A DNA stretch of 64,000 nucleotides, taken from positions 179,304,001 to 179,368,000 of the forward strand of contig OX597815.1 of assembly GCA_951406725.2 (NCBI GenBank). Reading direction: 5' to 3'. The notes beneath the pieces are model-generated. The model was not told the DNA's origin and did no database searches. It saw only the letters and a list, made by a program, of their open reading frames with translations. Made by a program: the position numbers and the translations under genes. Every line of letters starts with the position of its first letter. Position 1 is the stretch's first letter. Below are positions 3,670-60,900 of this stretch, piece by piece. Origin of the DNA: Octopus vulgaris. Taxonomy: Eukaryota.

Positions 3670-3710
3670 ACTTTTGACAATCTTTTACCAAAGAGTGAAA
3701 CCGGTTAAGT
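3670..3710 (+). ncRNA. Minimal type-I hammerhead ribozyme candidate (U3-A8 core variant)
   Basis: actt-TTGACAA-t-ctttt(acca)aagag-t-GAAA-CCGG-TT-aagt: 4-bp stem I, 5-bp stem II, palindromic stem-III loop; followed by AATAAA and (TA)n. Confidence 0.6.
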
Positions 3711-3779
3711 AAATAAACATAGTTTAAATTGCATTTTCAAACCTTTTTTCTTATATATATATATATATATATATATATA

Positions 3780-4869
3780 TCTCTTATTATAAAAGGCAGA
3801 TTTTATCTGCCTCCCTTTGGGAGTTATACAAATCTACAATATAGGATTTCTTCAATTACAATTTACCTAGCAATTTTAAGAGTACAATGCATCGCGTCAT
3901 GCCAGGTCCAGTTTTTAAAATTTAAACTCCAATTAAGCAAAATTTACAGAAAACTCACATTCTGGTGTGTGTGTCAAATGCTTTTCTTAGTCTGGTTTAC
4001 ACCACACGCAAACGCACACACACAGTGGGCAGCGAATAAAATGAAAGTAATTTACTTACTGTAGTGAGTGATTCTTTCACTCTGCCTCCCACTTCCTCTT
4101 TCAACACAGACACGCAAATATATAAATAAAATTGTAAGCTAACGTGCGTGTGTGTGAGTGTGTGTGTGTGTGTGCGCGCGTGTGTGTGTGTGAGGGTGCG
4201 CGCGTGTGTGTGTGTGTGTGTGTGTGCGTGTGCGTGAGTGTGTGACAGGAAAGTTTTTTACGACGAATATAAGTAGCAGAAAGATAAGACAGTAAGGTGT
4301 GATTTGAGGGAGATTTGGCTGCTATTTCTACCATGTCTAGCTGCCATGTAGGGGTCTCCCTCATAGGCTCATACATACATATATACATAGATAAGACAGT
4401 AAGGTGTGATTTGGGGGAAATTTGGCTGCTATTTCTACCAGGTCTAGCTGCCATGTAGGGGTCTCCCTCATAGGCTCATACATACATATATACATAGATA
4501 AGACAGTAAGGTGTGATTTGGGGGAAATTTGGCTGCTATTTCTACCAGGTCTAGCTGCCATGTAGGGGTCTCCCTCATAGGCTCATACATACATATATAC
4601 ATAGATAAGACAGTAAGGTGTGATTTGGGGGAAATTTGGCTGCTATTTCTACCAGGTCTAGCTGCCATGTAGGGGTCTCCCTCATAGGCTCATACATACA
4701 TATATACATAGATAAGACAGTAAGGTGTGATTTGGGGGAAATTTGGCTGCTATTTCTACCAGGTCTAGCTACCATGTAGAGGTCCCCCTCATTGGCTCAT
4801 ATATATATACATACATAAGACAGTAAGGTGTGATTTGAGGGAGATTTGGCTGCTGTTTCTACCAGGTCT
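3780..4869 (+). mobile_element. Probable non-autonomous Helitron 5' portion carrying a minisatellite
   Basis: Begins TCTCTTATTATAAAAG after an A, like the 5' end of the Helitron at 5625; no 3' hairpin or CTAG found. Confidence 0.4.
4282..4869. repeat. 107-bp tandem repeat, about 5.5 near-identical copies
   Basis: agataagacagtaaggtgtgatttg recurs at 4282, 4389, 4496, 4603 and 4710; ORF starts are spaced 107 bp apart. Confidence 0.97.
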
Positions 4870-4935
4870 GTTAGGCCTTCTCATGTAAACTCAAGCTTTC
4901 TTATGCCTTGAACATAAGACCAAAGCAGAGAATGT

Positions 4936-5170
4936 ATTCTTTTATTCTTCTGCTTTTTCCAGCCATTGGTCTGTGGCCATGCTGGGGCAATGCCTTGAAG
5001 AATTGTAGTTTAATGAATCAACTCCAGTTTTATTTTTGTAAGCATTGTACTTATTCTATCTGTTTCCACTAGGTGACAGGGATGTAAACAAACCAACATT
5101 CGTTGTCAAGCAGTGGTGGAGGACAATCACAAGCACAGACACGCACACACACACACATACATGCATACAT
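4936..5170 (-). mobile_element. SINE family A, 3' half
   Basis: Matches the tail of the full-length copy at 60901-61317. Confidence 0.75.
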
Positions 5171-5199
5171 ACATATATATATATGTGTGTATATATATA

Positions 5200-5535
5200 T
5201 TGCAGCGTGGAAGGTGTTTGTAAGCCATTTAAGAAACACACAAAAACCGTTACATTCACTTCAACATTTAAATTTCATTTGCCAAAATATTTTCGTCGCT
5301 TTGAGACCGCGACCTGTTCACTGACAAAAATATCGTGCTAACAGGTCGCGGTCTCAAAGCGACGAAAATATTTTGACAAATTAAATTTAAATGTTGAAGT
5401 GAATCTAACGGTTTTTGTGTGTTTCTTAAATGGCTTATAAACACCTTCAACGCTGCAACTGTTTTCGTTCCAGCACACGATCTCAGATCAAGTCACTTGC
5501 TATGCAAGTACATCTCTGTAACTATTTATACATTT
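5200..5535. mobile_element. Inverted (foldback) PLE-type terminal-repeat element within (TA)n
   Basis: 5200-5318 is the reverse complement of about 5340-5458; contains an HHR motif; flanked by (TA)n. Confidence 0.7.
5278..5328 (-). ncRNA. Minimal type-I hammerhead ribozyme candidate (G3-C8 core variant)
   Basis: Minus strand: tttgtca-GTGAACA-g-GTCGC(ggtctcaaa)GCGAC-GAAA-ATAT-TT-tggcaaa; 7-bp stem I, 5-bp stem II. Confidence 0.65.
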
Positions 5536-5624
5536 ATATATATATATATATATATGTATATTGTTAAAAACAGTAAGATAACAAAAGAAAGAAAGAGACC
5601 TCAATATTATGTAAATAGAGGAAA

Positions 5625-6019
5625 TCTTTATATATAAAAGTGAGGTTGTGTGTCTGTCTCCTACGATTTAGATTCCTAACTACTCCCACATTTTGCGGTG
5701 CAGTTTAACCAAAAGCGGGTATCTTATAGTCGTGATTCATATCGAGACCGTCTGGGTATTAGCGCGCGTCTACGATGAGTCTACGATTTAAAAAAAAAAT
5801 TACCATCAATTTTTCCCATTTTTAATCCATTTTTGACATATATAAGGGAAGTAACTCTCTAAAATTTATTATTAAATCTCAGAACGTAAAAAGCTACAGT
5901 AACACCCCTCCCCCTTTGTGGTTAGCCATATTGAGATGTCTATTATACTTTACATCTCTAAAAATGCTTATATAATTATTTCCCTTACAAACCCGAGCAA
6001 CGCCGGGCGATACTGCTAG
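5625..6019 (+). mobile_element. Non-autonomous Helitron
   Basis: 5' TCTTTATATATAAAA; 3' hairpin cccgagcaacgccggg about 8 nt before terminal CTAG; inserted between A and T. Confidence 0.85.
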
Positions 6020-58558: not shown

Positions 58559-58844
58559 CTCGACGAATCCTCACTCTGCAGGATATTCATATATAGATTT
58601 TCAAGCAAAATACATTTGCTGATTTCGAAAATCTGTTCGAAAGCAATAATAATTCTCTAAAAGAGATATAGACAGTAACTGCTCGATAACATAAGGGACT
58701 AAAGCCATCTGAATATGGCTAGGGACAGGGCAGGGTGGTGGGGGTGTTACTGTTGCATTTAGCCCCAGGCGAACATCGACGTCACCAGAAAGGCTCGACA
58801 CCGTCACGGTGCCCTTAACCTGCAAAGGGAGGTAATTCCCCGAT

Positions 58845-58918
58845 GAAGCGGAAACCACACACGGACCATGGTTTCAAGGTGTATTGCCTATCGTCGGCGT
58901 GTGGTAGGCTTCTGCTTC
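58845..58918 (-). ncRNA. Type-I hammerhead motif (array copy 2)
   Basis: As copy 1, with one substitution in distal stem I. Confidence 0.65.
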
Positions 58919-59018
58919 CTCGACGAATCCTCACTCTGCAGGATATTCATATATAGATTTTCAAGCAAAATACATTTGCTGATTTCGAAAATCTGTTCGA
59001 AAGCAATAATTCGTCGAG

Positions 59019-59092
59019 GAAGCGGAAGCCTACCACACGCCGACGATAGGCAATACACCTTGAAACCATGGTCCGTGTGTGGTTTCCGCTTC
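59019..59092 (+). ncRNA. Type-I hammerhead motif (array copy 3; U4C core)
   Basis: cacacg-CCGACGA-t-agg(caataca)cct-t-GAAA-CCATGG-TC-cgtgtg; stem I extended by gaagcggaa/ttccgcttc; predicted cleavage after 59073. Confidence 0.65.
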
Positions 59093-59378
59093 ATCGGGGA
59101 ATTACCTCCCTTTGCAGGTTAAGGGCACCGTGACGGTGTCGATCCTTTCTGGTGACGTCGATGTTCGCCTGGGGCTAAATGCAACAGTAACACCCCCACC
59201 ACCCTGCCCTGTCCCTAGCCATATTCAGATGGCTTTAGTCCCTTATGTTATCGAGCAGTTACTGTCTATATCTCTTTTAGAGAATTATTATTGCTTTCGA
59301 ACAGATTTTCGAAATCAGCAAATGTATTTTGCTTGAAAATCTATATATGAATATCCTGCAGAGTGAGGATTCGTCGAG

Positions 59379-59452
59379 GAAGCGGAAGCCTACCACACGC
59401 CGACGATAGGCAATACACCTTGAAACCATGGTCCGTGTGTGGTTTCCGCTTC
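59379..59452 (+). ncRNA. Type-I hammerhead motif (array copy 4)
   Basis: Identical to 59019-59092. Confidence 0.65.
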
Positions 59453-59669
59453 ATCGGGGAATTACCTCCCTTTGCAGGTTAAGGGCACCGTGACGGTGTC
59501 GAGCCTTTCTGGTGACGTCGATGTTCGCCTGGGGCTAAATGCAACAGTAACCCCCCCTGCCTCCTACATATATATATATGTCTATATCTTTTAGAGAATA
59601 TATAACAGATTTTCGAAATCAGCAAATGTATAAAATCTATATATATCCTGCCGATGAGGATTCGTCGAG

Positions 59670-59739
59670 GAAGCGAGCCTACACCGCCGACGATAGGCAA
59701 TACACCTTGAAACCATGGTCCGTGTGTGGTTTCCGCTTC
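59670..59739 (+). ncRNA. Type-I hammerhead motif (array copy 5, damaged stem I)
   Basis: Core intact; small deletions in the 5' strand of stem I. Confidence 0.5.
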
Positions 59740-60900
59740 ATCGGGGAATTACCTCCCTTTGCAGGTTAAGGGCACCGTGACGGTGTCGAGCCTTTCTGGT
59801 GACGTCGATGTTCGCCTGGGGCTAAATGCAACAGTAACACCCCCACCACCCTGCCCTGTCCCTAGCCATATTCAGATGGCTTTAGTCCCTTATGTTATAT
59901 ATATATATATATATATATATATATATATATATATATATATATATGTGTGTGTGTATGTGTTTGTGTGTCTGTGTTTGTTCCCCCAACATTGCTTGACAAC
60001 CGATGCTGGTGTGTTTACGTCCCCGTAACTTAGCGGTTCGGCAAAAAGAGACCGATAAAATAAGTACTAGGCTTCCAAAGAATAAGACCGGGGTCGATTT
60101 TCTCGACTAAAGGCGGTGCTCCAGCATGGCCACAGTCAAATGACTGAAACAAGTAAAAGAGTAAAAGAGTATAGGCTCGAGAGTATGCGAGATGTTTCAC
60201 TCTATTAGAACACATCTAGCTTTATGAAGAGAACGTAAAGAGAGGCATTGTGTTGGTGAAAACCTGAACTGTAAGTTTGTTTTAATGGCTGAGTCAGAGA
60301 AAATGAGCTTCCATGACAAGTAGAAGGAAAGTAAGAAATTATTCTCACATTGGAGACCTTATCCACATGCTTGCGACAGAGTGGGCACCTTTAATAAACG
60401 TAGCTGAGTGCTTGGTGAATGAGTTAAACCAGATGGCGTATTGTTGCCTGTCTGTCAAAAGAAAAGCGTCTGCTTTAAAAGATTTCCGAAGTAATCCGGA
60501 GGAAGGCATCCTCATTTGACGTAATCGTTTTCCCACGGCCATTTCAAGTTTAGAATCTAGTGATTGTGAAGACAGCGCTGTATACTCCAGTGAGTAAATA
60601 ACATTTTTAATGCAACTTTGAACTTAGTTTCCTTCGATTTAAGTCGGAGCTGATAAAATTAAAAGAATAAATAAATGCAGGCTAGACGTTTGTGTTGAAG
60701 CAAATGACAGTATTATTGTTCTTCAATAACTGAATATCTGTATCAATATAAAAGCATCGTAATAAAGTTGGAGGATAGGAGAGTGTGCAGTGTTGATGGC
60801 TTCCTAGCAGTTTGTTTTGTTCTTGTACATAAAGGAACCGAATCGAACAACAACCAACTTTGCCTTTCATTATTTGCAAGGTCGATAAAACAAGTATACA

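Follow-up and report, generated by a model that had tools for sequence, protein, structure and literature searches.

Hammerhead ribozyme motifs, mostly of Penelope-like element ends, and a retrozyme in a 64-kb stretch of the Octopus vulgaris genome

Hammerhead ribozyme motifs occur at eight sites in the 64-kb stretch of the Octopus vulgaris genome analysed here ("the window" denotes this whole stretch), which also carries a Penelope-like element (PLE). Where do so many motifs of one design come from, and do they matter for host RNA? An earlier note on this DNA had proposed a Penelope-driven ecosystem of unrelated, non-coding, ribozyme-tagged parasites, dense enough to affect long pre-mRNAs. 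The present analysis points with high probability to minimal type I hammerheads of PLE end repeats, which a number of unrelated PLE families have left behind as 5′-truncated 3′ stubs, together with one retrozyme, likely dependent on borrowed PLE enzymes; lone copies would likely be near-silent ribozymes. The data behind this reading are that longer copies of five families extend into PLE coding sequence, that insertions show PLE inversion with a one-sided tail, and that six of the eight sites lie at (TA)n. Comparisons were made within the 2.8-Gb assembly (227 contigs), whose other copies are labelled L followed by a number; several of these locus sets overlap in part. Statements on cited papers apply to the available portions of those papers.

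The reality of the motifs was assessed with a type I descriptor consisting of the core N-U-G-A-N-N-A, a Watson-Crick 3:8 pair, 0-1 extra base, stem II, GAA, a palindromic stem III and stem I; earlier versions were dropped as either too loose or blind to the long-stem motif. It matches the window five times (3.7, 5.3, 27.0, 35.4 and 53.8 kb); 200 local dinucleotide shuffles gave 0.17 matches on average and never more than 2. As the descriptor was fitted to window motifs, the test was made on an independent sample of 60 evenly spaced 10-kb stretches (600 kb). There, 28 matches were obtained against a mean of 1.85 and a maximum of 4 in 20 shuffles, a 15-fold excess, and perfect-core matches numbered 23 against 0.4. 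With the 3:8 pair left free, it was Watson-Crick in 23 of 25 matches (12 C:G, 9 U:A, 2 G:C) and in 3 of 10 from shuffles. The motifs at 12.9, 50.9 and 58-60 kb are outside the descriptor, so that the counts are lower bounds for variant cores; these three were confirmed via their families. All eight sites listed by the earlier note are thus present, and shuffled sequence does not match their density. Short stems, several folds no better than shuffles by energy and a few spurious-looking sample matches could suggest chance matches in AT-rich repetitive DNA, but this explanation is hardly credible, being refuted by the excess in the independent sample and by the 3:8 covariation, and opposed by the multi-copy families at PLE ends. 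Folding energy alone did not separate most motifs from shuffles. No hammerhead was found among the 150 of 280 Rfam matches listed, where microsatellite matches dominate.

The motif density of the window is ordinary for this genome: five matches were observed and 3.0 per 64 kb are expected from the sample (P=0.18). Extrapolation gives roughly 10^5 motifs genome-wide, a rough figure as the 28 sample matches represent 19 insertions in 16 of the 60 stretches, with seven from one array. About 41% of the window matches repeats found in the 600-kb sample. Further hammerhead families seen in the sample comprise a 359-bp retrozyme whose core is canonical, an opposed pair with U3:A8, two motifs with U4C, and a fold-back pair (L201, L214, L244, L248, L255).

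The common design that had been described (type I, palindromic stem III) was seen and equals the published minimal PLE hammerhead. A conserved core with Watson-Crick 3:8 pair and stems I and II is found at 3.7, 5.3, 35.4 and 53.8 kb, while the 27.0-, 50.9- and 58.5-kb motifs have one family-wide core deviation each. The palindromic 15.1-16.1 region, which allows a dimer, is present in the PLE-type motifs and lost in the window's 35.4-kb copy (AUGU, no duplex). Comparison of the flanks of the eight sites bore out their lack of homology but for a single weak 28-nt match between 3.7 and 5.3 kb (E 0.003). The association with (TA)n also held, as (TA)6+ lies within 200 nt downstream in six of the eight window elements (exceptions, 35.4 and 50.9 kb). 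In the sample, 14 of 28 matches have it no more than 250 nt downstream, compared with 16.7% of background positions; counted per insertion, the figure is 12 of 19 (p 7e-6, or 0.004 with the background doubled for two-armed insertions).

The answer to the question of origin begins with the Penelope copy itself, which is made up of the following features.

212..2362, minus strand: 5′-truncated Neptune-type PLE coding region with reverse transcriptase (RT; RVT_1 match), C-x4-CxxC linker and GIY-YIG; copies are ~99% identical
2359..3757, plus strand: inverted copy of the PLE 3′ untranslated region (UTR) and end repeat (pseudo-long terminal repeat, pLTR), joining the coding region at about 2360
3670..3710, plus strand: minimal type I hammerhead of this PLE, with U3:A8, U.U at the stem II base and the palindrome ACCGGU

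The second arm lies ~2 kb before the window and is the sole carrier of a ~35-nt tail. The hammerhead at 3.7 kb had been taken for a separate element beside Penelope; it is instead part of that Penelope, and in the longer copies L185 and L198 it directly precedes ORF1 (open reading frame 1). It is identical in 46 of 50 occurrences, and the family is young (~99% identity). Nor does the description as autonomous-type apply, since the window copy is 5′-truncated and has a premature stop at 455-457, seen in one of 35 occurrences, the window's own; judged from its sequence, this copy is not autonomous. The linker motif definitions of PMC8557442 place the element among Neptune-type PLEs. In this family, an upstream ORF1 of ~468 codons, for which no convincing Pfam match was found, overlaps ORF2 in another frame (L185:7271-8674, L198:5392-6795), and a 44-bp tandem stands in the 3′ UTR directly before the hammerhead (3430-3656).

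Four further sites are stubs of other coding PLE families.

12800..12933, minus strand: old PLE 3′ stub of a Hydra-like family, ending inside the hammerhead core
26925..27105, minus strand: PLE 3′ stub with (TA)n on both sides; hammerhead 27049-27012 (minus) with family-wide A6U
35325..35600, minus strand: pLTR stub with tRNA-derived head (35549-35490), (AAT)n, hammerhead 35416-35371 (minus) and a short inverted 5′ piece with tail
53684..55940, minus strand: 2.3-kb 3′ UTR of a Hydra-like PLE, ending at (TA)n; hammerhead 53925-53818 (minus)

Beyond the 53.8-kb segment, whose hammerhead has a long stem II and a 2-bp stem I, L264 and L265 (92% identity over 3.8 kb) run on into an ORF that contains a CxCx5C linker, GIY-YIG, CxxC and CxH; by these motifs, the parent appears to match the Hydra clade description of PMC8557442. 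Many copies of this hammerhead lie within a shared unit of >9 kb at ~98% identity on different contigs (L187, L188, L190, L191, L192), which also contains an ORF of a long interspersed nuclear element (LINE). For the 12.9-kb family, with a core mostly CUGAAGA, L279 and L285 share 0.7 kb upstream encoding a similar endonuclease (EN) remnant, and for the 27.0-kb family, in which none of 25 loci has A6, RT/EN remnants lie upstream on the same strand in seven of 20 longer loci. PLE ORFs near L067, L311 and L341 were dismissed as mere neighbours, as an inverted arm or (TA)n lies between; the many matches of one protein query with a common repeat at its N-terminus were disregarded. The PLE coding sequences examined combine RT with a C-terminal GIY-YIG, and inverted truncated copies with a one-sided tail were found, both as in endonuclease-bearing (EN+) PLEs. 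Five of the eight families (3.7, 12.9, 27.0, 35.4 and 53.8 kb) thus have their hammerhead in a pLTR or at the 3′ end of a coding PLE. The suggested link to Penelope holds, while "non-coding parasites" describes none of these five, which are 5′-truncated 3′ ends of coding PLEs, and is right for the 58-60 kb retrozyme only.

The 35.4-kb family, with C3:G8 and a canonical core, was first read as a short interspersed nuclear element (SINE). That reading was dropped since three copies extend upstream into GIY-YIG sequence, and the element is therefore regarded as a pLTR with an embedded tRNA-derived segment. Among 30 copies selected by tail alone, GIY-YIG-coding sequence (Atlas score 0.96) ends 71-77 nt before the head in two (L371, L388), and it was also found in L072; the family thus departs from tRNA-derived SINEs, which start at the head and are wholly non-coding. 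A possible but doubtful alternative is that this family, and perhaps those of 5.3 and 50.9 kb, spreads mainly as SINE-like RNAs, a promoter for RNA polymerase III (Pol III) in the pLTR yielding a ~280-nt RNA copied by PLE enzymes. A and B box-like motifs are present in the head, at or near which many copies begin, so that separate Pol III transcription is possible; moreover, schistosomes have SINE-like elements with a tRNA promoter and a hammerhead (PMC6765202). Nevertheless, the longer copies run into GIY-YIG sequence, the head hairpin could itself stall reverse transcription, and ARAGORN did not call the head as a tRNA; the Pol III promoter is putative.

How PLE insertion would produce such stubs can be pictured from published PLE biology (PMC11167929, PMC8557442). 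The GIY-YIG endonuclease would nick AT-rich or (TA)n DNA, and reverse transcription would begin just downstream of the hammerhead/pLTR and usually stop early, so that even the shortest copies would retain the hammerhead. An early stop after such a start would therefore give many unrelated flanks and one design. Selection would act on tandem master copies, in which two motifs pair through the stem III palindrome, and stubs would also be moved passively, for instance in a Helitron-like unit. The latter is exemplified by the 5.3-kb copy.

3780..6019, plus strand: young Helitron-like composite unit with 5′ TC, 3′ hairpin plus CTAG, then T
5200..5522, minus strand: inverted pLTR-like pair; complete hammerhead 5328-5278 (minus) with G3:C8 and palindrome AAUAUU

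Non-autonomous Helitrons with captured DNA have a 5′ TC and a 3′ hairpin plus CTAG before T, and form head-to-tail tandems with captured flank. The ends at 3780-6019 agree with this pattern (5′ TC; 3′ hairpin with CTRR; T after the 3′ end). The 2.24-kb unit contains the 5.3-kb hammerhead pair, whose plus arm has a damaged core and a longer tail, a 107-bp tandem and repeat fragments. It is common to all 29 other best loci at 97-99% identity; these were picked by identity to the window copy and are not representative of the 5.3-kb family. Of 30 loci, 27 have the Helitron-like 3′ end and five have head-to-tail tandems; a second Helitron-like 5′ end lies inside the unit at 5625. A Helitron-like mechanism, rather than Penelope, is likely to have spread the copies of this unit. 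The free-standing 5.3-kb family, in which inversions, tails and (TA)n are found, accounts for 1,777 exact matches to its pattern. It was also observed that the unit is inserted in the (TA)n ending the Penelope arm, that its 107-bp tandem (4282-4869) varies in copy number, and that the search for it returned 946 first-look candidates, which is not a copy number.

The two remaining sites are a fold-back family and the retrozyme.

50820..50966, minus strand: fold-back stub of a hammerhead-like family; motif 50939-50907, with GCAA for GAAA (A13C)
58305..59898, both strands: non-LTR retrozyme of 360-bp tandem units in two opposed arms with (TA)n flanks; near-identical arrays on many contigs

In the 50.9-kb family, GCAA was found in 18 of 20 loci and GAAA in none, some loci being two arms of one insertion. 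Inversion junctions in this family are concentrated at the 5′ boundary of the hammerhead-like core (window 50820-50966, L295-L313).

The retrozyme fits the sequence definition of its class: a non-coding tandem whose units measure 150-400 bp and each hold one type I hammerhead, with dispersed copies. Its arrays are ~99% identical across contigs. Five hammerheads, found by motif match at 58.5-59.7 kb (three plus, two minus), carry U4C, U.U at the stem II base and an extended stem I; U4C together with U.U occurs in 134 of 134 retrozyme occurrences from 28 partly overlapping loci. A 78%-identical relative, L201, has a canonical core. In four of four arrays (the window's and three others), the arm boundaries fall at unit positions 175-178 and 218-222, a PLE-like tail asymmetry. 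Arrays with such PLE insertion signatures support PLE enzymes as the mobiliser. The retrozyme is covered by contigs from four runs presumed to be RNA, two of which contain a join going back 360 nt; since a circle, a tandem transcript and DNA would each account for such a join, it was not used as evidence.

Whether the motifs cut depends on pairing. Lunse et al. are said to have described dimer cleavage of PLE hammerheads. Going by PMC4209133 and PMC6765202, a pair of motifs on the same RNA is probably required for cleavage; a lone minimal motif did not cleave in vitro (PMC4209133). A same-strand partner within 1.5 kb was found for nine of 28 sample motifs, and in the window for the retrozyme only. 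Core changes are fixed in three families, namely U4C (58-60 kb), A6U (27.0 kb) and A13C (50.9 kb). A6C and U4C have low activity in vitro; a viroid tolerates U4C; of the mismatches, U.U at 10.1-11.1 is tolerated best (PMC3088659). G3:C8 is partly active (PMC11167929). The same study found catalysis dispensable for insertion in vitro, hammerhead mutants not impairing it, and in its available portion no reads ended at the cut site. Among copies, core and flank mutation was 0.028 and 0.048, 0.016 and 0.035, 0.013 and 0.029, and 0.060 and 0.066 in four sets, three of them similarity-chosen and the power low. The core does not carry more mutations than the flanks, which gives no sign of purging.

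These results bear on the view of the earlier note that mostly non-autonomous parasites cut long pre-mRNAs often enough to matter. In its favour are the ~10^5 extrapolated motifs, the one true retrozyme with same-strand tandems and the under-representation of retrozymes in Xenopus introns (preprint 10.64898/2026.07.22.740005). We nevertheless regard it as very unlikely, given that five of eight families are coding-PLE stubs, that 19 of 28 sample motifs are without a same-strand partner within 1.5 kb, that three families have fixed core changes, that inactivating mutations are not in excess, and that eight of nine Xenopus retrozyme dimers failed to cleave. No host exon was recognised among the 123 frames of 75+ aa in the window, inspected by eye without a family scan. 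The window data give no support to a pre-mRNA effect, which from sequence is unlikely for single stubs.

Several points weigh against the origin from PLE ends with near-silent lone copies. Divergence is slightly lower in the core than in the flanks (p 0.06-0.10), possibly owing to selection on copies. The stem III palindromes of 3.7, 53.8 and 58.5 kb form stable duplexes (-8 to -11 kcal/mol), and abundant identical motifs may pair in trans. No linked PLE ORF was found within ±1.5 kb in 25 loci of the 5.3-kb family or in 20 loci of the 50.9-kb family, both PLE-like in insertion style. The ORF linkage rests on few long copies (two loci for 12.9 kb, three for 35.4 kb, two for 53.8 kb), and the many 35.4-kb copies that start at or near the tRNA head fit a separately transcribed short RNA.

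The function of PLE hammerheads is an open question in PMC8557442 and PMC11167929, for which this genome offers a large natural panel of variants, some still spreading. With ~10^5 oriented motifs, a test of strand bias in introns would be well powered. The residual interest lies in the tRNA-derived head of one end repeat and in the family-wide U4C, A6U and A13C. A speculative and rather unlikely extension is that the ~10^5 PLE-type hammerheads keep the fold with catalysis partly optional, the motif serving PLE enzymes as a recognition or packaging signal, and that one pLTR with a Pol III promoter spawns SINE-like RNAs copied by Penelope, not LINE, enzymes. Catalysis would be partly optional because three successful families spread with U4C, A6U and A13C.

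Among other repeats of the window, a long inverted repeat of ~125 bp per arm (7762-8018) gave no hammerhead match. LINE-like and mariner-like coding remnants were recognised by eye at 31385-32032, 20749-21243 and 25233-26373, the first of which had no Pfam match.

A literature search found no cephalopod hammerhead census, and the available portion of a 2026 octopus repeat annotation (PMC13282606) does not mention ribozymes; the present families may already be among those listed in the supplements of PMC4209133 and PMC8557442. The window pattern is a further instance of published PLE hammerheads and retrozymes. The metazoan pLTR hammerheads of Cervera and de la Pena 2014 (PMC4209133) share with it type I, short stem I, an extra base between 9 and 10.1, the palindromic stem III and the U3:A8 variant. 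In both cases a genome harbours numerous unrelated families, with motifs that are mostly single and come from truncated PLEs, plus some opposed pairs. The ~10^5 estimated here exceeds the 2,000-9,000 of that study, with different descriptors, and G3:C8, A6U and A13C as family states were not met in its available portion. With the EN+ clades Neptune, Penelope/Poseidon and Hydra of Craig et al. 2021 (PMC8557442), the window families share 5′ truncation, an inverted adjacent copy, a one-sided 30-40-bp tail and (TA)n preference; the CxCx5C linker with CxxC and CxH recurs in the 53.8-kb parent. They differ in long microsatellite-rich 3′ UTRs (~2.3 kb) and the tRNA-derived head of one pLTR, the clades here being assigned by motifs. 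The composite unit resembles non-autonomous Helitrons with captured DNA in its 5′ TC, hairpin-CTAG-T end, head-to-tail tandems and captured flank, and differs in a cargo that includes a hammerhead fold-back. Finally, metazoan non-LTR retrozymes (PMC7229834; bioRxiv 10.64898/2026.07.22.740005) are like the window's non-coding 360-bp tandem with one type I hammerhead, PLE dependence has been proposed for them too, and axolotl HHR_Amex2 has the same U.U at the stem II base; in sequence, the octopus retrozyme is set apart by U4C throughout, PLE inversion, fixed arm ends and (TA)n targets.

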